Below, in pieces: positions 4,527 through 22,280 of a DNA stretch of 23,613 nt. The stretch comes from a virus. Its lineage: Duplodnaviria > Heunggongvirae > Uroviricota > Caudoviricetes. The translations under genes and the position numbers were made by a program. The stretch lies in the IMG/VR virus record IMGVR_UViG_2617270938_000001; one strand, written 5' to 3'. The notes under the pieces were generated by a model. The model had not been told where the DNA came from. It did no database searches and worked only from the letters and a program-made list of their open reading frames with translations. Each line of letters begins with the position of its first letter. The first letter of the stretch is position 1.

Positions 4527-5087
4527 TATCGCGTCCTCAACAATGAATTTTGTGATGCGGTGCCTGGTGCCTCCAGGTGACGTTAACCAGTTAACAATTA
4601 ACGCCGGATACAGAGAATCCACCCATAACACTGTTTTTGGTTTTAACTGTTCCGCGTGCGCTCAGCCGCATTCACCACATCACAAAATTCACTTTAAAAA
4701 GGGCGGCAGAGCAGTCACGGAGTAAAACTGATACCGCCAAACGTCACCAGAAAATTGATAACAGAGGGCGTTGCAGCGGGGTTGTCACTTAAGCGTATGG
4801 TCAACCTGACAACCCGGTGTCCTCAACGGGGAAGGAATACCCCCGCCATACTTACCGCCGCGCCATTTCGCGGAGTGCCACAACCGGAAGCGCACGGTCG
4901 ACGAAAATTTAACGACAGGCTATCTATGAACCAACAACTTCGCCGTGTGCTTTCGCGTTATGCCCTGACTTTTCAGGGAAATATCCTTTCAGTAAACTGT
5001 CAGTGCCGGATGCTCACCCGTGTCCGGCGCACGCACTCCACCTCACCCGTGGAGAACTCCTTAATCACCAACCCTCAGGAGGGTGAA

Positions 5088-10731: not shown

Positions 10732-10942
10732 AAACGGTTTGCGGGAAAAGGAGAGTTAAGTAGAATTGCAGCGGGTGCTTGAGGCTATCTGTCTCAGGCA
10801 TGAACACCAAAAGGCAGATAGAGAAAAGCCCCAGTTAACATTACGCGTCCGGCAAGACGCTTAACATTAATCTGAGGCCATATCTATGCTCTACACACGT
10901 AGGTTAGCCTCTTACGTGCCGAAAGGCAAGGAGAAGCAGGCT

Positions 10943-11098
10943 ATGAAGCAGCAAAAGGCGATGCTAATCGCCCTGATCGTCATCTGTTTAACCGTCATTG
11001 TGACGGCACTGGTAACGAGGAAAGACCTCTGCGAGGTACGAATCCGAACCGGCCAGACGGAGGTCGCTGTCTTCACAGCTTACGAACCTGAGGAGTAA
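10943..11098 (+). CDS. hokD: Hok/Gef-family type I toxin (51 aa; matches my recollection of E. coli HokD/RelF)
   Basis: MKQQKAMLIALIVICLTVIVTALVTRKDLCEVRIRTGQTEVAVFTAYEPEE. AGGAGA SD 8 nt upstream. An in-frame upstream extension from ATG 10886 gives a 70-aa mok-like ORF. Confidence 0.9.
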   Translation: MKQQKAMLIALIVICLTVIVTALVTRKDLCEVRIRTGQTEVAVFTAYEPEE

Positions 11099-11544: not shown

Positions 11545-12591
11545 GTGCGGGTATTACTTCGACCTGTTCTGGTACCGGAACTCGGGCTGGTGATCGTTAA
11601 GCCGGGCCGTGAATCCATGCCGGTATTCCACAATACCCGGGTACTGGTGGAGCCGGAACCGAAAAGCATGCGTAATCTGCCGTCCGGGGTCGTTCCTGCC
11701 GTTCGCCAGCCGCTGGTGGAAGACAAAACATTGCTGCCGTTTTTCAGTAACGCACGGGTAATTCGTGCTGCTGGTGGTGCTGGTGCATTGTCTGACTGGC
11801 TGTTGCGCAATATTAAATCCTGCCAGTGGCCACACGGCGATTATCATCACAGCGAAACCGTTATTCACCGTTATGGTACCGGCGCAATGGTGTTGTGCTG
11901 GCACTGCGACAACCAGCTGCGTGACCAGACATCCGAATCACTCGAGCAACTTGCTCATCAAAACCTGTCAGCATGGATGATTGACGTCATCGGTCACGCA
12001 ATAAGCGGTACGCAGGAGCGTGAATTATCTCTGGCTGAATTATCCTGGTGGGCGGTCCGCAATCAGGTGGCGGACGCGCTACCGGAAGCGGTATTACGTC
12101 GTTCGCTGGGGTTGCGTGCGGAAAAAATCCGCTCAATGTACCGTGAAAGCGACATCGTACCGGGAGAGCAGACCGCCACCAGCATACTGAAGCAGCGCAC
12201 AAAAAATCTTGCGCCGCTGCCTCACGCCCACCAGCAAACCCCGCCACAGGAAGAGACGGTGGTCAGCATTGCCGTTGATCCTGAGTCTCCGGAATCTTTC
12301 ATGAAACGACCTAAACGTCGCCGCTGGGTTAACGAGAAATACACACGCTGGGTGAAGACACAGCCGTGTGCGTGTTGTGGTAAGCCAGCCGACGATCCCC
12401 ATCACCTGATTGGTCATGGTCAGGGCGGAATGGGGACAAAATCTCACGATATTTTCACGCTACCGCTGTGTCGGGAGCATCACAACGAGCTTCATGCGGA
12501 TCCTCTGGCGTTCGAAGAAAAGCATGGTTCTCAGGTTGATTTAATTTTTCGTTTTCTTGATCACGCCTTTGCAACTGGCGTGCTTGGGTAA
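11545..12591 (+). CDS. DUF968-family protein (YdfU-like) with C-terminal Cys/His zinc-binding, HNH-like motif
   Basis: 348 aa, GTG start with GGAGG SD. C-terminus: CACCGKPADDPHHLIGHGQGGMGTKSHDIFTLPLCREHHNELH. Position between hok and Q matches ydfU in Qin. Confidence 0.65.
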   Translation: MRVLLRPVLVPELGLVIVKPGRESMPVFHNTRVLVEPEPKSMRNLPSGVVPAVRQPLVEDKTLLPFFSNARVIRAAGGAGALSDWLLRNIKSCQWPHGDYHHSETVIHRYGTGAMVLCWHCDNQLRDQTSESLEQLAHQNLSAWMIDVIGHAISGTQERELSLAELSWWAVRNQVADALPEAVLRRSLGLRAEKIRSMYRESDIVPGEQTATSILKQRTKNLAPLPHAHQQTPPQEETVVSIAVDPESPESFMKRPKRRRWVNEKYTRWVKTQPCACCGKPADDPHHLIGHGQGGMGTKSHDIFTLPLCREHHNELHADPLAFEEKHGSQVDLIFRFLDHAFATGVLG

Positions 12592-12603
12592 AAGAGGTGA
12601 CTG

Positions 12604-12978
12604 ATGCTCATAGATTTGGTTTTACCTTACCCGCCGACGGTGAACACTTACTGGCGACGCCGTGGCAGCACATATTTTGTATCAAAAGCCGGGGAGCGTT
12701 ATCGCCGGGCAGTGGCGCTTATTGTTCGCCAGCAGCGGCTGAAATTAAGCCTGTCCGGAAGGCTGGCGATAAAGGTGATTGCAGAGCCACCGGATAAGCG
12801 TCGTCGCGACCTGGACAATATCCTGAAAGCACCGCTGGATGCGCTGACGCATGCGGGAGTGTTAATGGACGATGAGCAGTTTGATGAAATCAATATCGTT
12901 CGTGGTCAGCCAGTATCTGGTGGACGTCTGGGGGTGAAGATTTACCCCATAATGCATGAAGAGCAGGTCAAAAAATGA
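12604..12978 (+). CDS. rusA: Holliday junction resolvase RusA
   Basis: 124 aa with PPTVNTYWRRRG and RRRDLDNILKAPLDAL, matching the RusA motifs I recall (PPSNNRYYR... / RRRDLDNLQKA...). AGAGG SD. Confidence 0.85.
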   Translation: MLIDLVLPYPPTVNTYWRRRGSTYFVSKAGERYRRAVALIVRQQRLKLSLSGRLAIKVIAEPPDKRRRDLDNILKAPLDALTHAGVLMDDEQFDEINIVRGQPVSGGRLGVKIYPIMHEEQVKK

Positions 12979-13796
12979 AACTGGAAGATTTACCGAAATA
13001 CTACTCCCCAAAATCCCCCGGCCTGACTGATGCATCGGCCTCAACGTCGAAAGATGCGCTGAGTATCACTGATGTGATGGCCGCGCAGGGCATGACACAG
13101 AATCGGGCTGAGATGGGGTTTTCTGCGTTCCTTGGGAAAATGGGCATCAGTATGAATGACAGGGCGCGGGCAACAGAATTACTGGCAGATTATGCACTCA
13201 GTCGGTGCGATCGTGTGGCGGCGTTGAGAAAACTTCCGGCAGAAATAAAACCGGTAGTGATGCGCATTATGGCTTCGTACGCTTTTGAGGATTATGCCCG
13301 CAGCGCAGCGAGTAAAAAGCAGTGCCCTTGTTGCTATGGGGAAAAATTTATTGAAAGCATAGTTTTTACAAACAAGGTCCAGTATCCGGATGGTAAGCCG
13401 CCGGTATGGGCAAAGTGTACGAAAGGTGTGTATCCGTCTTACTGGGAAGAATGGAAAAAAGTCAGGGAGGTGGTAAAAGTTGCCTGTCCGGAGTGTGGCG
13501 GAAAGGGTGAGGTTTCCACCGCCTGTAAGGATTGCCGTGGGCGTGGTGTCGCCATTCATCGTGAAGAGTCGGTAAAACGTGGTATGCCTGTTATCAGAGA
13601 CTGCCAGCGTTGTGATGGTCGTGGCTGTGAAAGACTACCATCAACGGAGGCATTTAATGCCATACGCAAAGTGACGAGTGCTATCACGCTTGATACGTGG
13701 AAAAAATCAGTGAAACGCTTTTACGATACGTTGGTGGTTCGGTTTGACATTGAAGAGGCATGGGCGGAGCGGCAGTTAAAGAGGGTAACGCGATAG
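12975..13796 (+). CDS. late-gene antitermination protein Q (82/21/933W type)
   Basis: 273 aa with a Cys-rich zinc motif (CPECGGKGEVSTACKDCRGRG ... CQRCDGRG). Overlaps the rusA stop (ATGA); followed immediately by a promoter/terminator pair. Confidence 0.8.
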   Translation: MKLEDLPKYYSPKSPGLTDASASTSKDALSITDVMAAQGMTQNRAEMGFSAFLGKMGISMNDRARATELLADYALSRCDRVAALRKLPAEIKPVVMRIMASYAFEDYARSAASKKQCPCCYGEKFIESIVFTNKVQYPDGKPPVWAKCTKGVYPSYWEEWKKVREVVKVACPECGGKGEVSTACKDCRGRGVAIHREESVKRGMPVIRDCQRCDGRGCERLPSTEAFNAIRKVTSAITLDTWKKSVKRFYDTLVVRFDIEEAWAERQLKRVTR

Positions 13797-13900
13797 TGTT
13801 GTTGATTTTTCCCGAATCTGTGGTAAATTTGCTCTAACGATGGGCGTTTTATGCCTGACGTTAGAGGATTTTTACACCCCGCCGCCTGGCGGGTTTTTTA
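13797..13900 (+). promoter_or_regulatory. pR'-like late promoter with downstream tR'-like intrinsic terminator (CCCCGCC-GCCT-GGCGGG + TTTTTT at 13877-13899)
   Basis: TTGATT ... TGTGGTAAAT promoter-like elements directly after Q, then a GC hairpin with T-run about 50 bp downstream, the layout of the lambdoid short pR' transcript. Confidence 0.55.
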
Positions 13901-14021
13901 TGACTGAAATCGCGTCAGTACAGTAAACGCGCTGGTGGCGGTGAATACCTGTCTTTCAGCTTGCTGGCTTTTTCGACAAGAGTTATTGGTGTGTCACGTT
14001 AACCGGAAAAGGGAAAAAGAC

Positions 14022-14219
14022 ATGCTAAAACAGCAGGATATGACAGAAACCGCCAGAGTGGTGTTTAATGAATTAAGCGTTACCGACCCGGCGACAGTCG
14101 GGGAGATTGCGCAGAATACTTACCTTTCACGCGAACGCTGCCAGTTAATACTGACCCAGCTGGTTATGGCGGGTCTGGCAGACTATCAGTTCGGTTGTTA
14201 CAGACGCCTTCCGCAGTGA
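14022..14219 (+). CDS. small HTH/winged-helix-like DNA-binding protein (65 aa) upstream of the methyltransferase
   Basis: ATG 14022 with AAGGGA SD (MLKQQDMTETARVVFNELSVTDPATVGEIAQNTYLSRERCQLIL...). Terminator GCCTTC-loop-GAAGGC + T7 overlaps the stop (14206-14230). Confidence 0.5.
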   Translation: MLKQQDMTETARVVFNELSVTDPATVGEIAQNTYLSRERCQLILTQLVMAGLADYQFGCYRRLPQ

Positions 14220-14370
14220 AGGCTTTTTTTATTTGTGGTAAATGGGCGGCTGGTGGGTGTTAGGGGCACTCACCAGCCATCTGCTCATGCGTTGGGTTCA
14301 CAAGCAAACCTCAGGCCCACTGCTTTGCGCAAAAGCAGAATGAGCCTATCAGAGACAGGCTTAATGATCC

Positions 14371-15420
14371 ATGCTTAATACTGTAAAAATATCCAGTTGT
14401 GAGTTAATCAACGCCGACTGCCTGGAATTTATCCGGTCGTTACCCGAAAATTCTGTTGACCTGATAGTCACGGACCCGCCGTACTTTAAAGTGAAGCCTG
14501 AGGGCTGGGATAACCAGTGGAAGGGCGACGATGATTACCTGAAGTGGCTGGACCAGTGTCTGGCGCAGTTCTGGCGGGGGCTGAAACCTGCCGGAAGTCT
14601 TTACCTGTTCTGTGGTCATCGCCTGGCATCTGATATCGAAATCATGATGCGTGAACGCTTCAGTGTGCTGAACCATATTATCTGGGCGAAGCCGTCCGGA
14701 CGCTGGAACGGATGCAACAAGGAAAGCCTGCGGGCGTATTTCCCCGCCACAGAGCGCATTCTGTTCGCGGAACATTATCAGGGGCCGTATCGTCCGAAAG
14801 ATGCCGGGTATGCGGCGAAGGGCAGTGCACTGAAACAGCATGTGATGGCCCCGCTGATTTCTTACTTTCGTGATGCGCGCGCGGCCCTGGGGATAACGGC
14901 AAAACAGATTGCAGATGCCACAGGAAAGAAAAACATGGTGTCGCACTGGTTCAGTGCCAGTCAGTGGCAGCTACCGAACGAAAGCGATTATCTGAAATTA
15001 CAGTCGCTGTTTGCCCGGGTGGCAGAAGAGAAACATCAGCGGGGAGAACTGGAAAAGTCCCATTACCAACTGGTCAGCACATACAGTGAGCTGAACCGGC
15101 AGTATACGGAACTGCTGAGTGAATATAAAAATTTGCGGAGGTATTTCGGTGTGACGGTGCAGGTGCCGTACACCGATGTGTGGACGTATAAACCGGTGCA
15201 GTACTATCCAGGGAAACATCCGTGCGAAAAACCGGCAGAAATGCTGCAGCAGATAATCAGCGCAAGTAGTCGTCCTGGTGATCTGGTTGCGGATTTTTTC
15301 ATGGGGTCGGGTTCAACGGTAAAAGCGGCGATGGCACTGGGGCGTCGTGCGATTGGTGTTGAGCTGGAGACCGGACGTTTTGAGCAGACAGTCAGGGAAG
15401 TTCAGGATTTAATCGTTTGA
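14371..15420 (+). CDS. orphan DNA methyltransferase, beta-class amino-methyltransferase (N6-adenine or N4-cytosine)
   Basis: 349 aa. Motif IV DPPY near the N-terminus (LIVTDPPYF) and AdoMet motif I near the C-terminus (DFFMGSGST), the permuted order of beta-class MTases. No adjacent restriction endonuclease candidate. Confidence 0.85.
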   Translation: MLNTVKISSCELINADCLEFIRSLPENSVDLIVTDPPYFKVKPEGWDNQWKGDDDYLKWLDQCLAQFWRGLKPAGSLYLFCGHRLASDIEIMMRERFSVLNHIIWAKPSGRWNGCNKESLRAYFPATERILFAEHYQGPYRPKDAGYAAKGSALKQHVMAPLISYFRDARAALGITAKQIADATGKKNMVSHWFSASQWQLPNESDYLKLQSLFARVAEEKHQRGELEKSHYQLVSTYSELNRQYTELLSEYKNLRRYFGVTVQVPYTDVWTYKPVQYYPGKHPCEKPAEMLQQIISASSRPGDLVADFFMGSGSTVKAAMALGRRAIGVELETGRFEQTVREVQDLIV

Positions 15421-15469
15421 AACGGATGAGATTGCAGAATTAATTACGCACCATTATTATTCTGCTCCC

Positions 15470-15540
15470 GGCCCTTTAGCTCAGTGGTGAGAGCGAGCTA
15501 AAGGGCCGGGTCGCTGGTTCAAATCCAGCAAGGGCCACCA
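15470..15540 (+). tRNA. tRNA-Ile-like element with aberrant anticodon arm (probable tRNA pseudogene)
   Basis: Acceptor GGCCCTT/AAGGGCC, D-arm GCTC-AGTGGTGA-GAGC, T-arm GCTGG-TTCAAAT-CCAGC and 3' ACCA are intact. The anticodon-arm region is 12 nt (AGCTAAAGGGCC) instead of 17 and is perfectly complementary to the element's own 5' end. Confidence 0.5.
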
Positions 15541-15549
15541 TATCACATA

Positions 15550-15626
15550 CCACCATTAGCTCATCGGGATAGAGCGCCAGCCTTCGAAGCTGGTTGCGCG
15601 GGGTTCGAGTTCTCGATGGCGGTCCA
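15550..15626 (+). tRNA. tRNA-Arg (anticodon TCG)-like; candidate tRNA with imperfect stems
   Basis: D-arm GCTC-ATCGGGATA-GAGC; anticodon arm CCAGC-CTTCGAA-GCTGG; T-loop TTCGAGT; 3' CCA. One A-C mismatch in the acceptor stem and two G-T pairs in the T-stem. Confidence 0.45.
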
Positions 15627-15640
15627 TTTATCGGTATTCT

Positions 15641-15700
15641 GCGTTGTTAGCTCAGCCGGACAGAGCAATTGCCTTCTAAGCAGCTGTGGTTGCACTCCTG
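15641..15700 (+). pseudogene. tRNA-Arg (anticodon TCT)-like 5' fragment lacking a recognisable T-arm and 3' acceptor
   Basis: GCGTTGT-TA-GCTC-AGCCGGACA-GAGC-A-ATTGC-CTTCTAA-GCAGC resembles tRNA-Arg(UCU) through the anticodon loop, but the downstream sequence has no GGTTCGAATCC-like T-arm. Confidence 0.4.
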
Positions 15701-15882
15701 TTGTTTCTGGTGGTGATGGTGGACTTCAGCAGCCGGATAATGTCGGTGCTGTCTGATGGTGTTTTGGTGGCGGGTGTGTGGTTGTTGCTTTCCCGTTGCT
15801 GAAAAAGAAAGCATCAGGCGATTAGCAGGGTATCAGTTACCCGTTGAAATTTTTAAATACCTCACAATTCCACAGCTTGATG

Positions 15883-16080
15883 ATTGTCTGGCTGCCGGAG
15901 AATTTGTTAAAAATAACATCGCATGGTGAATCCCCCTCAGCGGCGGGGCATCTGGCAAAGTGTATGATCCAGAGAACATGCAAATTCAGTAGACAGGCTG
16001 AATTTACCGGGAGGCCCCTGGCACCATGCGACAGACAGAAATTAGGCTATACTTCAGCCCCTCTCCGGAGGGGCTTTTCT
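15883..16080 (+). ncRNA. candidate noncoding RNA element A (about 198 nt), paralog of element B, ending in intrinsic terminator AGCCCCTC-TCCG-GAGGGGCT + TTTT
   Basis: Shares blocks with 16352-16545 (ATTGTCTGGC, TTTGTTAAAAA, CGCATGGTGAATCCCCCT, GAATTnACCGGGAGGCnCCnGGCACCATGC, identical terminator hairpin). The overlapping ORFs are on different strands in the two copies, arguing against a shared protein. Confidence 0.45.
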
Positions 16081-16268
16081 GTGCAGGATGTGTCACAGTT
16101 TCCTGAATTCTGAGTACTGTCCTGTTACTCAGGGTGCTATATTTTCTGACGTGATGAAAGTCTGCCGGAAGGCGGAACGTATCGGAAATGACCCAGTAGA
16201 GAAAACGTTGACTCAGATACCGATGCTGAGTTACCGGGAAACCGGCATCACATGACCGCTATCCTTCC

Positions 16269-16292
16269 AGGCTCGCTCCGGCGGGCCTTTTT
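16269..16292 (+). terminator. intrinsic terminator between the two repeat elements (GGCTCGC-TCCG-GCGGGCC + TTTTT)
   Basis: GC-rich stem with tetraloop followed by a T-run; about 30 bp upstream lie TAAAAT and CATAAT -10-like hexamers preceding element B. Confidence 0.5.
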
Positions 16293-16351
16293 ACTGCAGA
16301 AAACAGTTTTCCCGTAAAATGCCACGTTGCTCATAATTCAGGCTGGCGATT

Positions 16352-16545
16352 ATTGTCTGGCCGGCGGGAAGTTTGTTAAAAAATTTCGCATGGTGAATCC
16401 CCCTGTGCGGAGGGGTAATCAGCGAGTAGGTATATGGGATAATCGCGGATTCAGGTGCTGGTACTGAATTCACCGGGAGGCACCCGGCACCATGCAATGG
16501 CACATAGCGCCACTCTCCAGCCCCTCTCCGGAGGGGCTGTTTATA
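16352..16545 (+). ncRNA. candidate noncoding RNA element B (about 194 nt), paralog of element A, same terminator hairpin (16519-16538)
   Basis: See element A. The conserved 5' block, the GGTGAATCCCCCT block, the GGGAGGC block and the terminator are retained while the middle has diverged. Confidence 0.45.
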
Positions 16546-16573
16546 TTGATTTTGTCAGATGTGAGTAAACTCC

Positions 16574-16909
16574 TTATGGACTTTGTTGTTTTAGTCCATA
16601 AGGACATATTTGCAGAGTGCAACGGTTATTAAAGCATTCATTCAATACGTTATCTGTATTTGTAGGGCATTCCTGGCTGTTTTTGATTAAATTCCAGAAT
16701 GTTTTATTGAATGGTACTACGTTGTAAATGGTTACAGGTAGCACTTTGTTATTGAGCATGATACCTGTGTGAGTCAGTGTAAATATACTTTCAGGAGGTA
16801 AGAAAGCATCCGATTGATACCAGATTATTAATTTTACTTTACTCCATATGACTGAAAAAGATATTCCGCATGATGGCTGGATAACTGTATCAATCACAAT
16901 CCACTTCAT
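16574..16909 (-). CDS. IraM/YcgW-family protein (anti-adaptor-like), AT-rich moron on the opposite strand
   Basis: 111 aa, [22 protein letters not shown]...IIWYQS...FLPP...ECP...ICPYGLK, matching my recollection of E. coli IraM from memory (not searched). AAGGAAG SD 6 nt upstream. Local GC is much lower than the flanks; a perfect 11-bp inverted repeat (16584-16615) covers the last codons. Confidence 0.6.
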
Positions 16910-17169
16910 TTAGCTTCCTTGTTTATGCCTTGCTGGTGATGTTCTGAAAAGTATAAATGATATTTTTGAATATAAACCATAGAGCAGAATTATTTTTCTG
17001 ATGTTGTTTATTGTTTATTTAAATGCAGGGTGGTTTATATCTCGTCTTGTAGTTTATCCATGCATATCTGCTTGATGATCAGGTTTCTATTTAAGGTATG
17101 GTTTTGTGTTTTTTCTGTGTTACATGTCTGGTATTTTAAAGAATTATTTTTCAGATGGTGGAAAGAACC

Positions 17170-17358
17170 ATGGCATTTAAACACTATGATGTTGTCAGGG
17201 CGGCGGCGCCGTCAGATCTTGCGGAAAAGCTGACACATAAACTGAAAGAGGGCTGGCAGCCGTTTGGTAGTCCGGTGGCCATAACCCCTTATACCCTGAT
17301 GCAGGCGATTGCAGCAGAAGGTGATGTGGTGGTCAGTGGTGCAACTGAGCCGGAGTGA
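17170..17358 (+). CDS. small conserved hypothetical protein (62 aa) upstream of the holin (possibly DUF1737-like)
   Basis: MAFKHYDVVRAAAPSDLAEKLTHKLKEGWQPFGSPVAI...; position just before the lysis cassette. Family name is recalled, not verified. Confidence 0.45.
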   Translation: MAFKHYDVVRAAAPSDLAEKLTHKLKEGWQPFGSPVAITPYTLMQAIAAEGDVVVSGATEPE

Positions 17359-17600
17359 TACTACGTCATCGTACTGGCCCGGCATTCCAGGCCATAAAAG
17401 ACGGTCTGGCAGTGGGACTAAATGCACTGACGCTGACGGATATTACCAAAAATGCAACGTATGGCGTTGAGATAGAAAGTCTGGTGCTGGAGATAAATAC
17501 ACCGGCATCATCATAAAAAGTGAGCCAGTCAAATGGAAGGTATCGTTAAACTCACCGGTAGTGTCAGTGGAGCGTCTGAGACGCTTGCATGAGTTATCAG

Positions 17601-17633
17601 AGCCATCAGTAGTTAACTGGTGGCTTTTTTATT
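17601..17633 (+). terminator. intrinsic terminator-like hairpin just upstream of the holin (AGCCATCAG-tagttaa-CTGGTGGCT + TTTTTTATT)
   Basis: 9-bp stem with one G-T pair followed by a T-run; promoter-like TTGAGA ... GATAAAT about 100-130 bp upstream. Confidence 0.5.
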
Positions 17634-17665
17634 GTTGTCAGCTTCCGGATAACGGGAGACGGGGT

Positions 17666-17881
17666 ATGGACCAGATGGAAAAAATCACAACAGGTGTGTC
17701 ATACACCACGTCAGCGGTGGGAACGGGCTACTGGTTCCTGCAGTTGCTGGACAGGGTTTCCCCGTCTCAGTGGGCGGCAATAGGCGTGCTGGGGAGTCTG
17801 CTGTTTGGGCTGCTGACATATCTGACTAACCTGTATTTCAAAATCAGAGAGGACCGTCGTAAGGCGGCACGGGGAGAGTAA
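17666..17881 (+). CDS. class II holin, phage 21 S21-type pinholin (71 aa) with dual-start motif
   Basis: [71 protein letters not shown], close to S21 as I recall it; Met1 and Met4 give the dual start. The track ORF 17561..17881 includes upstream run-in. Confidence 0.85.
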
Positions 17882-17885
17882 TTCA

Positions 17886-18236
17886 ATGACTCAAAACTAT
17901 GAACTGATTGTGAAAGGGATCCGCAATTTTGAGAATAAAGTTACGGTAACTTTAGCGTTACGGGACAAAAAACGCTTTGACGGTGAAATTTTTGACCTGG
18001 ACATCTCGCTGGACCGTGTTGAAGGTGCCGCGCTGGAGTTTTATGAGGCAGCAGCCAGAATGAGCATCAGACAGGTCTTCCTGGATGTTGCTGCCGGGTT
18101 ATGTGAAGGGGATGAGCAGTCGCCGGAAAAGCGCCCCGTAATTTTAGAGGCGCAGAATGTATGGATAACCTACAAAGGAAAGCTACCGGGAAGAATTACT
18201 GGTTCTCTGAAGACTCCTCCGGAATCACAACCTTAA
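17886..18236 (+). CDS. hypothetical protein (116 aa) embedded between holin and endolysin (YdfR-like position)
   Basis: GGGGAGAG SD; starts 5 nt after the holin stop. Some lambdoid prophages carry a gene at this position, but I cannot verify the family. Confidence 0.55.
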   Translation: MTQNYELIVKGIRNFENKVTVTLALRDKKRFDGEIFDLDISLDRVEGAALEFYEAAARMSIRQVFLDVAAGLCEGDEQSPEKRPVILEAQNVWITYKGKLPGRITGSLKTPPESQP

Positions 18237-18299
18237 GTCACTGACCGGAACAGATAAACCTGTCCGTGGGCAGAAACCGATAAATCCTGATAAATATCC

Positions 18300-18833
18300 A
18301 TGAACACCAAAATCAAATACGGCCTGTCGGCTGCCGTTCTGGCGCTGATTGCCGCTGGTGCGCCTGCGCCTGACATTCTCGACCAGTTTCTGGATGAAAA
18401 GGAAGGTAACCACACCACGGCATACCGTGATGGCGCGGGTATCTGGACCATCTGCCGCGGTGCCATCCTGGTGGATGGCAAACCTGTCGTTCCGGGCATG
18501 AAGTTGTCGAAGGAAAAATGCGACCGGGTTAACGCCATTGAGCGTGATAAGGCGCTGGCATGGGTGGAGAAAAACATCAAAGTGCCATTGAGCGAACCCC
18601 AGAAAGCGGGGATCGCGTCATTCTGTCCGTACAACATTGGTCCCGGTAAGTGTTTCCCGTCGACGTTTTATAAACGAATTAATGCAGGTGATCGCAGGGG
18701 AGCGTGTGAGGCGATTCGCTGGTGGATTAAGGACGGTGGCAGAGACTGCCGTATTCGTTCAAACAACTGCTACGGTCAGGTATCCCGTCGTGACCAGGAG
18801 AGCGCGCTGGCGTGCTGGGGTATCGACAGATAA
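18300..18833 (+). CDS. endolysin, lysozyme (T4-lysozyme / GH24-like) with N-terminal SAR (signal-anchor-release) domain
   Basis: 177 aa. Gly/Ala-rich weakly hydrophobic N-terminus (GLSAAVLALIAAGAPAP) followed by a lysozyme-like core (EGNHTTAYRDGAGIWTICRG ...), as in phage 21 R. Follows the pinholin. Confidence 0.85.
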   Translation: MNTKIKYGLSAAVLALIAAGAPAPDILDQFLDEKEGNHTTAYRDGAGIWTICRGAILVDGKPVVPGMKLSKEKCDRVNAIERDKALAWVEKNIKVPLSEPQKAGIASFCPYNIGPGKCFPSTFYKRINAGDRRGACEAIRWWIKDGGRDCRIRSNNCYGQVSRRDQESALACWGIDR

Positions 18834-18922
18834 GCAGAATATTTTGCTGAAAAATGCGGTTTGCTTACACGGACGGATAACACGAAATCCTGCGAACTGA
18901 CAAAAACTAAGTGAATAAAAGT

Positions 18923-18962
18923 AAAAACCCCGTTTGTTGGCTGCAAGCGGGGTTTTGTGTTT
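18923..18962 (+). terminator. intrinsic terminator-like hairpin inside the lysis cassette (AAAACCCCG ... CGGGGTTTT + GTGTTT)
   Basis: 9-bp stem with a 15-nt loop and U-rich 3' side, between the endolysin and the small TM ORF / Rz. Confidence 0.45.
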
Positions 18963-18992
18963 CCTGACTCTGGAAAAGTCAAAGGAGAAAGT

Positions 18993-19130
18993 GTGTTTGA
19001 TTTTAGCAAACTGATTCGGGAGATTCGAGTGATGGCTGAAAAATTATCCACCTGGAAGTTCATTCTTATCTGGCTGGTGTTTGTGATTATGGCCTCCGGT
19101 TATTTCATCGGTCAGATACGCTGGTGGTGA
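18993..19130 (+). CDS. small membrane protein (45 aa) immediately upstream of Rz; not in the ORF track
   Basis: GTG start with strong SD AAGGAG 5 nt upstream: (M)FDFSKLIREIRVMAEKLSTWKFILIWLVFVIMASGYFIGQIRWW. One TM segment; stop 1 nt before the Rz ATG. Confidence 0.4.
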   Translation: MFDFSKLIREIRVMAEKLSTWKFILIWLVFVIMASGYFIGQIRWW

Positions 19131-19131
19131 A

Positions 19132-19497
19132 ATGAACCGCGTACTGTGCGTGGTCATCATTGCCCTGCTGGTGGCCTGTGGTGCGCTTAGTCTGGGGCTG
19201 AATCATTACCGTGATAACGCCATAACCTACAAAGAGCAGCGCGATAAAAAAGTCAGTGAGCTGGAGCAGGCAAATGCAACCATTACTGATATGCAGCAGC
19301 GCCAGCGTGATGTTGCTGTACTTGATGCCAGATACTCGAGGGAATTAGCCGATGCGAGAGCTGAAAATGAAACTCTGCGCGCTGACGTTGCCGCTGGTCG
19401 TAAGCGCCTGCGGATCAACGCCACCTGCCCCGGTACCCGAACACGGCACTGGTCGGCGTGCAGGTGGACTCGGAACAGTTCGGCAGCCAGCAGGTGA
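19132..19497 (+). CDS. i-spanin Rz, N-terminal ~90 aa only; C-terminus replaced by out-of-frame J sequence (likely pseudogene); no Rz1 found
   Basis: [93 protein letters not shown] closely parallels lambda Rz; similarity is lost at about 19400-19420 where the J frame opens. Confidence 0.7.
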
Positions 19498-22280
19498 GCC
19501 GTAATTATCATCTTCGCGGGCGCATTCTGCAGGTGCCGTCGAACTATAACCCGCAGACGCGGCAATACAGCGGTATCTGGGACGGAACGTTTAAGCCAGC
19601 ATACAGCAACAACATGGCCTGGTGTCTGTGGGATATGCTGACCCATCCGCGCTACGGCATGGGGAAGCGTCTCGGTGCGGCGGATGTGGACAAATGGGCG
19701 CTGTATGTCATCGGCCAGAATTGCGACCAGTCGGTGCCGGATGGCTTTGGTGGCACGGAGCCGCGCATCACCTGTAATGCCTACCTGACCACACAGCGCA
19801 AGGCGTGGGATGTTCTCAGTGATTTCTGCTCGGCGATGCGCTGTATGCCGGTATGGAACGGGCAGACGCTGACGTTCGTGCAGGACCGACCGTCGGATAA
19901 GGTGTGGACCTATAACCGCAGTAATGTGGTGATGCCGGATGATGGCGCGCCGTTCCGCTACAGCTTCAGTGCCCTGAAGGACCGTCATAATGCCGTTGAG
20001 GTGAACTGGATTGACCCGGATAACGGCTGGGAGACGGCGACAGAGCTTGTTGAAGATACGCAGGCCATTGCCCGTTACGGTCGTAACGTCACGAAGATAG
20101 ATGCCTTTGGCTGTACCAGCCGGGGGCAGGCACATCGCGCCGGGCTGTGGCTGATTAAAACAGAACTGCTGGAAACGCAGACCGTGGACTTCAGCGTGGG
20201 TGCTGAAGGGCTTCGCCATGTGCCGGGCGATGTCATTGAAATCTGTGATGATGACTATGCCGGTATCAGCACCGGTGGTCGCGTGCTGGCGGTGAACAGC
20301 CAGACCCGGACGCTGACGCTCGACCGTGAAATCACGCTGCCATCCTCCGGTACCACGCTGATAAGCCTGGTTGACGGTCAGGGTAATCCGGTCAGCGTGG
20401 AGGTCCAGTCCGTCACCGACGGCGTGAAGGTGAAAGTGAGCCGTGTTCCTGACGGCGTTGCCGGATACAGCGTGTGGGGGCTGAAGCTGCCGACGCTGCG
20501 CCAGCGCCTGTTCCGCTGCGTGAGTATCCGTGAGAACGACGACGGCACGTATGCCATCACCGCCGTGCAGCATGTACCGGAAAAAGAAGCCATCGTGGAT
20601 AACGGGGCGCACTTTGACGGCGACCAGAGCGGCACGGTGAATGGTGTCACGCCGCCAGCGGTGCAGCATCTGACCGCAGAAGTCACCGCAGACAGCGGGG
20701 AATACCAGGTGCTGGCCCGCTGGGACACGCCGAAGGTGGTGAAGGGCGTGAGCTTCCTGCTTCGCCTGACCGTGGCAGCGGATGACGGCAGTGAGCGGCT
20801 GGTCAGCACGGCCCGGACGACGGAAACCACTTACCGCTTCACACAACTGGCTCTGGGGAACTACAGGCTGACAGTCCGGGCAGTAAATGCGTGGGGGCAG
20901 CAGGGCGATCCGGCGTCGGTATCGTTCCGGATTGCCGCACCGGCAGCGCCGTCGCGGATTGAGCTGACGCCGGGCTATTTTCAGATAACCGCCACGCCGC
21001 ATCTTGCGGTTTATGATCCGACGGTACAGTTTGAGTTCTGGTTCTCGGAAAAGCGGATTGCGGATATCAGGCAGGTTGAAACCACAGCACGCTATCTTGG
21101 GACGGCGCTGTACTGGATAGCCGCCAGTATCAATATCAGGCCGGGTCATAATTATTATTTTTACGTTCGCAGTGTGAACACCGTTGGCAAATCGGCATTC
21201 GTGGAGGCTGTTGGTCAGCCGAGTGATGACGCATCCGGCTATCTGGATTTTTTCAAAGGCGAGATAGGGAAAACCCATCTGGCTCAGGAGCTGTGGACGC
21301 AGATTGATAACGGTCAGCTTGCGCCTGACCTGGCTGAAATCAGAACATCCATTACGGATGTCAGCAATGAAATCACACAGACCGTCAATAAGAAACTGGA
21401 AGACCAGAGTGCGGCAATTCAGCAGATACAGAAGGTTCAGGTTGATACAAATAATAACCTGAACAGCATGTGGGCTGTGAAGCTGCAGCAGATGCAGGAC
21501 GGACGCCTTTATATCGCGGGTATTGGTGCCGGTATTGAGAACACCCCTGACGGCATGCAGAGTCAGGTGCTGCTGGCGGCAGACAGGATTGCGATGATTA
21601 ATCCTGCGAATGGCAACACAAAGCCGATGTTTGTTGGGCAGGGCGATCAGATATTCATGAACGACGTGTTCCTGAAACGCCTGACGGCTCCCACCATTAC
21701 CAGCGGCGGTAATCCTCCGGTATTTTCCCTGACACCGGACGGGCGGCTGACGGCGAAAAATGCCGATATCAGCGGTAACGTGAATGCGAACTCCGGGACG
21801 CTCAACAACGTCACGATTAACGAGAACTGTCGGGTTCTGGGAAAACTGTCTGCGAACCAGATTGAAGGCGATCTCGTTAAAACAGTGGGCAAAGCTTTCC
21901 CCCGGGACTCCCGTGCACCGGAGCGGTGGCCATCAGGGACCATTACCGTCAGGGTTTATGACGATCAGCCGTTTGACCGGCAGATTGTTATTCCCGCGGT
22001 GGCGTTTCGTGGCGCTAAACATGAGCGGGAGAATAACGATATTTATTCGTCATGCCGCCTGATGGTGAAGAAAAACGGTGCTGAAATTTATAACCGTACC
22101 GCGCTGGATAATACGCTGGTTTATACAGGTGTTATTGATATGCCTGCTGGTCGCGGTCACATGACGCTGGAGTTTTCGGTATCAGCGTGGCTGGTAAATG
22201 ACTGGTATCCCACAGCCAGTATCAGTGATTTGCTGGTTGTGGTGATGAAGAAATCCACAGCAGGTATCACGATTAGCTGA
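19404..22280 (+). CDS. J: tail-tip host specificity protein J, 5'-truncated (C-terminal ~940-960 codons; no upstream J sequence, start codon or promoter of its own)
   Basis: Long high-GC ORF with the size, position (immediately before lom and stf) and motifs expected of lambda J's C-terminal two-thirds. The frame is open from 19404; the track ORF begins at GTG 19458. Head and tail-shaft genes are absent upstream. Confidence 0.8.

Follow-up and report, generated by a model that had tools for sequence, protein, structure and literature searches.

Why would a prophage carry a DNA methyltransferase gene that has no restriction enzyme gene beside it? The question is raised by IMG/VR record IMGVR_UViG_2617270938_000001, a stretch of 23,613 nt that was analyzed over its full length (the window) and that represents a lambdoid Escherichia coli prophage with an integrase gene at 165-1295. 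In it, a methylase gene is preceded by a 65-aa open reading frame (ORF), and an RNA leader lies between the two. An earlier reading of the letters alone (the original prediction) correctly placed the ORFs, a terminator, both copies of a repeated 10-mer (TGTGGTAAAT) and the methylase motifs. It described an orphan beta-class methylase with a controller-like helix-turn-helix (HTH) protein upstream, which could be an anti-restriction module, an epigenetic module or the remnant of a restriction-modification (R-M) system, and it proposed domain searches on both proteins and a survey of flanking homologs for a lost endonuclease.

The locus is very probably a cassette of the M.EcoGI/M.EcoGII type in the phage late operon, which would depend on the antiterminator Q, stay silent in the lysogen and act against host restriction after induction. 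The enzyme itself is already known, being near-identical to M.EcoGII and matched by published homologs, and it occupies a standard position for phage cargo genes. Its leader and the 65-aa companion are the only undescribed parts of an otherwise known system.

An orphan methylase of the M.EcoGII family

The domain search assigns the methylase to PF01555 (Table 1). Its DPPY motif (aa 35-38, nt 14473-14484) precedes FMGSG (aa 310-314, nt 15298-15312), which is the beta-class order. Aligned over its full length with M.EcoGII, the protein is identical at 336 of 350 positions, i.e. at least 96%. This is a lower bound, because the reference was a machine-read copy in the supplement of PMC11551740 with evident reading errors (NHHIWA, GRRRAIG), and several of the mismatches are such errors. 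The allele is of the WP_000935533 family. The enzyme is 93% identical to that of phage 1720a-02, and its DNA matches 288 phage records, nearly all of them Shiga toxin (Stx)-converting phages, in which the gene, under the name 'DNA methylase', stands ahead of ileZ/argN/argO and stx. Full-length identity, the beta-class order together with an N6_N4_Mtase domain, and the prophage-borne, orphan state all agree with membership in the M.EcoGI/M.EcoGII family.

M.EcoGII is a characterized, non-specific adenine methyltransferase of 349 aa, borne on a prophage, that shares 333 of its 349 residues with the likewise non-specific paralog M.EcoGI and has close homologs in phage 1720a-02 and other enterobacterial phages (PMC5778455). 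It is unexpressed in the lysogen, deleterious if constitutive, and presumed to counter host restriction, with which the anti-restriction option of the original prediction agrees (PMC5778455). Homologs of 92-93% similarity in O111 Shiga toxin-producing E. coli (STEC) are listed as 'nonspecific', and no attributable motif was detected in the lysogens (PMC6602927). From its identity to the characterized enzyme, the window methylase would be expected to methylate adenine in any context. Enzymes of the M.EcoGII type are sold as a reagent and are established as a means by which phages counter restriction, and as first written the finding adds little to this. Within the methylase, aa 167-195 (14869-14955), in the presumed target recognition domain, give a weak HTH_3-like match (E 0.029, below threshold).

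No restriction endonuclease was found in the window, and no linked nuclease in about 250 related loci, among them loci gathered via the small ORF (80 from IMG/VR), via the methylase (55 at species level) and via the leader pattern (80). The proposed survey for a lost endonuclease therefore came back empty, and the methylase is an orphan, as had been predicted.

Position in the late operon

In the window, and likewise in annotated phages and genomes, Q is followed by a promoter and a terminator, then by the small ORF with a terminator of its own, the leader and the methylase, and finally by tRNAs, (stx) and lysis genes. In the window, the region 11545-13796 encodes DUF968 and RusA and then the Q antiterminator, and 3' of the methylase lie tRNAs, two STnc100 small RNAs (sRNAs), iraM and lysis genes. 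The closest genome is that of E. coli MS 85-1 (99.3% over 13700-17700). Relatives have ileZ/argN/argO after the methylase, followed by stx2A/B. The cassette also lies between Q and the lysis genes in prophages of Klebsiella, Salmonella and Buttiauxella, where it stands behind three unrelated Q families (PF06323, one unassigned, and PF06530).

The putative late promoter pR' scores 8/12 against the consensus and is unlisted by the promoter scan because the cut-off is 9/12; its assignment follows from its position right after Q and ahead of a terminator. On the + strand of 12900-16500 the same scan lists no sigma-70-like promoter; the methylase, a late-strand gene placed after Q/pR'/tR' and ahead of the lysis genes, has no promoter of its own. 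At the tR' position, the hairpin and T-run are kept in relatives. Further downstream, as the original prediction had noticed, the stop codon of the small ORF is embedded in a terminator-like hairpin (14206-14230, -8.9 kcal/mol), which in the window probably acts as a further barrier to transcripts coming from pR'. In Klebsiella, Salmonella and Buttiauxella a hairpin at this stop codon is kept by different sequences (-10.6 to -11.4 kcal/mol) and has no T-run; at least five T occur just upstream of the leader in 101 of 234 loci, and the T-run is lacking in the other 133.

A Q-dependent late gene is the simplest reading of this layout. In the lysogen, transcripts from pR', taken to be a constitutive late promoter, would stop at tR', and the harmful enzyme would not be made. 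On induction, Q would render RNA polymerase resistant to terminators, and the small ORF, leader and methylase would be co-transcribed with the tRNAs and lysis genes, and with stx where it is present. Translation of the methylase would then be set or gated by the leader, and phage DNA would be heavily adenine-methylated as it is replicated and packaged, escaping many restriction systems in the next host. In Stx phages this Q-dependent transcript would also include stx, and the methylase should be induced there along with the toxin. What is new here is a concrete genetic reason for silence in lysogens, which the layout would provide because the methylase stands behind Q, pR' and tR' (and a second terminator in E. 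coli) with no promoter of its own. Such a mechanism is absent from the published work on the enzyme (PMC5778455).

A conserved structured leader

Also new is a strongly conserved, structured leader in front of the methylase, together with the winged-helix companion of narrow family that is treated below. The leader was found by nhmmer in 255 of 269 loci, always followed by the methylase, and a covariance model finds exactly one copy per locus, that of the window scoring 129 bits (E 2e-31). As judged from sequence comparison it is under purifying selection: between genera whose methylase four-fold sites are 0.24-0.53 identical, the identity of the leader is 0.69-0.88.

When all column pairs were scanned, a single mutual-information pair stood far above the rest (A2 columns 56:80; T14282:A14306 in the window) and proved 100% canonical, with CG in 19 sequences, UA in 8, AU in 7 and UG in 3; in a set of 71 sequences the same pair reads CG 29, AU 22, UA 13 and UG 6. 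A fold of five helices (P1 UGGGC:GCCCA, P2 a 12-bp hairpin, P3 UUCGCU:AGCGAA, P4 CUGCUUU:AAAGCAG, P5 GUGAGC:GCUUAC) has 94% of its cells paired, compared with 33-46% when the partners are slid, and eight of its pairs are changed on both sides. In the window itself, P5 reads AUGAGC:GCUUAA and its outermost position is an A-A mismatch. Higher pairing figures come from a model-fitted alignment of 75 sequences, which leans towards the model and includes one doubtful Acinetobacter match. This match, upstream of a methylase of 39% identity (L147, E 0.0096), was set aside as probably due to chance, and it inflates the count of double-change pairs. The folding z-score of the window sequence is -3.68. 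The many U-G and G-U pairs, which would turn into mismatches if the opposite strand were read, suggest that the leader is an RNA of the + strand. Rfam 15 holds no match to it at gathering thresholds, and at E-values up to 5 yields only chance-level matches, all on the opposite strand.

A second fold, obtained with RNAalifold, fits almost equally but with less covariation. In it AUGGGC is paired with GCUCAU, and GGUC..AAGC with GCUU..GAUC, the latter pairing spanning positions -1 to -12 relative to the start codon. No Shine-Dalgarno sequence precedes the methylase start and, as this start follows a conserved, folded leader, the leader most likely sets or gates translation of the methylase. A fuller proposal is quite possible, if just short of probable: that the leader is an undescribed cis-regulatory RNA of M.EcoGII-type genes, a folded and possibly two-state 5' untranslated region (UTR) that gates translation and is controlled perhaps through the 65-aa protein, in the way of the com-mom genes of phage Mu, or through the enzyme itself. 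Should translation indeed be controlled by the leader, this would explain how a methylase able to modify adenines across the genome does no harm to the host before lysis, and would offer a compact control element for expressing such enzymes.

Several observations touch on the limits of the leader. A possible leader peptide from the ATG at 14242 (MGGWWVL...) was set aside as a by-product of the hairpin; it has 7, 16 or 33-34 codons in relatives and no proper Shine-Dalgarno sequence. Two loci, L109 (Erwinia endophytica) and L127 (Pantoea sp.), have methylases of 72-76% identity, with neither leader nor small ORF upstream of position 2501, so the leader is not strictly required in every lineage. 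In a third, L145 (Enterobacter sp. Bisph1, 2356-2779), a leader and a truncated methylase with a mutated ATG come right after the terminator of a chromosomal gene ending ...KLLKCSEFGDAIIANM. This is probably the decayed end of a prophage, as the adjoining gene end resembles icd, a known prophage attachment site. A paper on the pR' regions of Stx prophages mentions neither the methylase nor the small ORF (PMC6266700).

The 5' edge of the leader also accounts for the repeated 10-mer, the second copy of which had been regarded as a duplicate of the pR' element. Exact copies of TGTGGTAAAT occur at 13819-13828 and 14234-14243, both on the + strand, and with one mismatch allowed there are 6 matches vs 1.7 expected, a count to be read with the pair having been chosen after the fact. 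The second copy is instead the start of the conserved leader. Homology to the methylase module begins exactly at this 10-mer, whether the sequence ahead of it in a given relative holds unrelated genes, tR' itself, the small ORF or only what is left of the 3' hairpin of that ORF. The element itself reads CTGTGAAAAT in 76 loci, TGTGGTAAAT in 43, TTGTGGTAAT in 39 and CTGTGGAAAT in 19, and an identical upstream copy accompanies only 26 of the 43 TGTGGTAAAT loci, namely those with the Q type of the window. Because the edge element varies and the identical copy is so restricted, the repeat is taken to have arisen by chance in a single mosaic combination, and its reading as a duplicated promoter or Q site was rejected.

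The winged-helix companion

The small ORF is a real gene, since its dN/dS relative to other genera is 0.06-0.14, and RefSeq annotates the same coding sequence (CDS) in E. coli MS 85-1. The description of its product as HTH-like holds good: an AlphaFold2 (AF2) model (pLDDT 92.8) is a three-helix winged helix (wH) of the order H-H-H-beta-beta, with a beta hairpin as the wing. Foldseek matches the model to the wH domains of MarR/OhrR and IclR proteins (TM 0.75-0.80, E ~1e-3), and the N-terminal wH of S-adenosylmethionine (SAM)-dependent O-methyltransferases is also among the best matches (E ~1e-3); these are generic wH matches. In Pfam, winged HTH (wHTH) families remain sub-threshold (TrmB 17.3 bits vs 25.6; MarR_2 14.3 vs 27), so that the NCBI name 'TrmB family regulator' is a fold-level label: the protein has the winged-helix fold of the TrmB/MarR group and falls below the curated threshold. 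The protein has no HTH_3/XRE match in Pfam and no family in NCBIfam, PADLOC gives a weak, chance-level match only (E 0.0058), and a sequence search of solved structures with its profile returned nothing significant. The phrog_331-type family is narrow: of 1.84 billion clusters, 61 representatives belong to it, and only enterobacterial source names came up in the first homology search.

At species level, 45 enterobacterial methylase loci include upstream sequence; the small ORF precedes the methylase in 28 of them and is missing from 17, and the leader is retained in 15 of these 17. The ORF is likewise absent from 11 IMG/VR loci with room upstream, and it sits in nearly all E. coli methylase loci. 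Loci with the ORF carry the methylase at a constant distance after it, the sole exception with enough sequence being L024, which has an AraC-type gene instead. Identical small proteins are paired with methylases that differ by up to 16%. With 17 of 45 loci lacking it, the small protein is a common companion that the methylase can do without. It may serve as an accessory that binds nucleic acid or associates with the methylase, and its putative recognition helix is unusually hydrophobic (CQLILTQLVMAGL).

Ahead of the small ORF, its 5' UTR (13960-14021) is shared between genera and consists of CTTGCTGG, about 12 nt and then AGAGTTATYRGTRTGTCAY (also in L003, L004, L086, L089 and L092). It is promoter-like (TTGCTG, 17 nt, TATYRG) but has no final T in the -10 element.

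Table 1. Features of the methylase cassette and its surroundings, in window coordinates
Feature	Position	Strand	Details
Q antiterminator gene, 273 aa	12975..13796	+	PF03589 Antiterm, E 1.9e-50; relatives annotated antitermination protein / quuQ
pR'-like late promoter	13802..13829	+	TTGATT, 16 nt, TGgTAAATT (extended -10); holds first TGTGGTAAAT (13819-13828); read from sequence
tR'-like intrinsic terminator	13878..13899	+	CCCGCC-GCCT-GGCGGG then T6; terminator scan; fold -12.6 kcal/mol
65-aa winged-helix protein, phrog_331	14022..14219	+	ATG start; phrog_331 E 2.8e-37
Hairpin at stop codon of small ORF	14206..14230	+	GCCTTC-CGCAGT-GAAGGC (14206-14223) then T7; terminator scan; fold -8.9 kcal/mol
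Structured methylase leader, 143 nt	14230..14373	+	5' bases include second TGTGGTAAAT (14234-14243); last three bases are the methylase ATG
M.EcoGI/M.EcoGII-family N6-adenine DNA methyltransferase, 349 aa	14371..15420	+	PF01555 E 8e-43, aa 29-340
tRNA cluster after cassette	15470..15626	+	ileZ-like pseudo-tRNA 15470-15537; tRNA-Arg 15550-15626

Alternative explanations

A small HTH-type ORF directly upstream of a methylase resembles the C-M-R operons of R-M systems, and on this likeness the 65-aa protein would be a controller (C) protein whose nuclease gene has been lost. The Type II methylase model of PADLOC also matches (E 2e-165), but this model recognizes the methylase family only. Against such a history, the protein is modelled as a bare winged helix and has no HTH_3/XRE match, the obligatory link to a methylase is absent (17 of 45 loci lack the small ORF), and no nuclease was found in the window or linked to the cassette in about 250 related loci. 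The late-operon position is also fixed across genera: the cassette occupies the same place in E. coli, Salmonella, Klebsiella, Buttiauxella and others, behind three Q families and never with a nuclease. Moreover, as the characterized enzyme has no sequence specificity, no cognate nuclease could match it (PMC5778455). The term controller-like is thus not borne out, and descent from an R-M system is largely refuted, its remaining likelihood being almost nil. Scarcely better is the prospect of an epigenetic module active in lysogeny, in which the second TGTGGTAAAT would be the extended -10 of an internal promoter under the winged-helix protein, and the host chromosome would be methylated. The 10-mer is indeed identical to the pR' -10 region and follows a terminator, as would the promoter of an independent unit. 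However, with TG as the extended element the hexamer becomes TAAATG, lacking the final T; the element reads TGTGAAAAT or TGTGGAAAT in most relatives, and no T-run precedes it in 133 of 234 loci. The promoter scan of the + strand is negative, two terminators lie upstream, and what is conserved in the region is a base-paired RNA, whose U-G pairs can form on the + strand only. The family has moreover been reported as silent, with no detectable methylation in lysogens (PMC5778455, PMC6602927), and this part of the original prediction is very unlikely.

A different possibility concerns the pair formed by small protein and leader. In phage Mu, a harmful, late, anti-restriction adenine-modifying enzyme is translated once Com, a protein of 62 aa, has bound to a hairpin of the mom leader. 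By analogy, the 65-aa protein could bind the leader RNA or the methylase, activating or limiting translation, and the pair would form one regulatory unit. The elements are present in the right order and at fixed spacing (small ORF, structured leader, harmful late enzyme) in 28 of the 45 species-level loci and in almost every E. coli locus; a Shine-Dalgarno sequence is lacking at the methylase start, and one of the fitting folds pairs -1 to -12. The hydrophobic character of the putative recognition helix and the presence of N-terminal wH domains of SAM-dependent O-methyltransferases among the best structural matches point the same way. On the other hand, the small ORF is missing from 17 of the 45 loci, 15 of which keep the leader, although in these a copy may act in trans from another prophage; identical small proteins stand alongside methylases that are up to 16% different; and the fold matches are generic. 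A circuit of the Mu kind is therefore rather unlikely, if clearly the more serious of these alternatives.

The preferred reading, a Q-dependent anti-restriction cassette with a regulatory leader, has points against it as well. The model is drawn from sequence; about 10 residues differ from M.EcoGII, so that the non-specificity of this allele is deduced from its relative; and pR', a weak match to the consensus, is assigned by position. The second terminator is modest, at -8.9 kcal/mol, and is no general feature of the cassette, because other genera lack the T-run. Leader sequences share 84% identity on average and most of their pairs never vary, and two alternative folds fit them almost equally well. 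Finally, head and tail genes seem to have been lost from the window prophage, so that in this strain the shielding of progeny DNA may have ceased to work.

Other features of the prophage

The window prophage is lambdoid and Stx-phage-like, without stx, and partly deleted. After the methylase, the ileZ-like tRNA at 15470-15537 reads GAGCTA-----AAGGGCCGGG, compared with GAGCGACTCATAATCGCCAGG in MS 85-1 and a Stx2a phage, and its anticodon arm is damaged. It is uncalled by ARAGORN, yet scores 51.5 bits with the Rfam tRNA model, and is probably a pseudo-tRNA. A third, argO-like tRNA (15637-15700) ends after the anticodon arm in both the window and MS 85-1; because it breaks off where Stx phages continue with the rest of the tRNA and then stx2A/B, the stx locus is absent or deleted here. 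STnc100 is present in tandem copies (15891-16084 and 16360-16548; 139 and 133 bits). A terminator-like hairpin stands at the 3' end of the first copy only (16056-16075) and another lies between the copies (16269-16288); the terminator scan found no hairpin at the end of the second copy. They are followed by iraM on the minus strand (16574-16909). In the early region, a DicF sRNA (4701-4752, minus strand, 76.7 bits) and a sok antitoxin RNA of the hok/sok type (10773-10948, + strand, 117 bits) were detected. A gene for a 940-aa J-like tail-tip protein (19458-22280; Phage-tail_3, Ig_J, GpJ_C) comes almost directly after the lysis genes (region 17500-22280), where MS 85-1 instead has terminase, portal and head genes. 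Most morphogenesis genes thus seem to be gone from the window prophage.

The segment that separates Q from the cassette holds cargo that differs from locus to locus. Examples include GmrSD_N and HEPN genes, a T5orf172/MUG113 protein and several ORFs without a family (L024 898-2747, minus strand; L004 1700-2929; L092 2053-3662, minus strand; and upstream of L103, L105, L104 and L110), and the segment looks like a hotspot for defense-type cargo. The only nuclease-like neighbor in a relative is L22 of phiP27, annotated as GIY-YIG, which is a T5orf172/MUG113 protein and lies upstream of pR'. It was rejected as a lost nuclease, being unrelated cargo ahead of the late promoter, as were the GmrSD_N and HEPN genes of locus L024, which are unrelated cargo on the opposite strand.

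Comparison with known systems

The nearest known counterparts are M.EcoGII and M.EcoGI themselves, from prophages of E. coli O104:H4 C227-11 (Murray et al. 2018, PMC5778455). They share with the window enzyme the DPPY motif, target recognition domain and FxGxG motif, the orphan state, and an expected silence in the lysogen. The window allele differs by about 10 substitutions, and the position behind Q/pR'/tR', the companion ORF and the leader are all undescribed in that publication. The Stx phages phiP27 (L23-L24), 1720a-02 and those of Stx2a, Stx2c and Stx2d types have the same layout of small ORF, leader, methylase and tRNAs, at 86-93% DNA identity. They differ in carrying stx after the tRNAs, whereas the window has no stx, a truncated third tRNA and a first tRNA with a damaged anticodon arm.

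For the small protein the comparisons are more distant. With the MarR, TrmB and IclR regulators it shares the winged-helix fold (TM 0.75-0.80) but, unlike them, it is a bare wH without dimerization helices or ligand domains, and it stays below the Pfam gathering cut-offs. C proteins, with C.PvuII and C.AhdI as examples, form all-helical dimers of the XRE type, and through C-boxes they determine when the nuclease is expressed. They have in common with the window protein that a small protein of DNA-binding type is encoded just upstream of a methylase. The window protein, in contrast, is a winged helix with no nuclease to control, and on both counts falls outside the C proteins. The closest functional analogy is offered by Mu com-mom, which likewise combines an ORF of about 60 aa, a structured leader and a harmful, late, adenine-modifying enzyme, a likeness that lies in the possible mechanism. 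Com, however, binds RNA through a zinc finger, and its gene overlaps mom, whereas the window has a winged helix, two genes 150 nt apart, a SAM-dependent methylase and no homology to the Mu genes.

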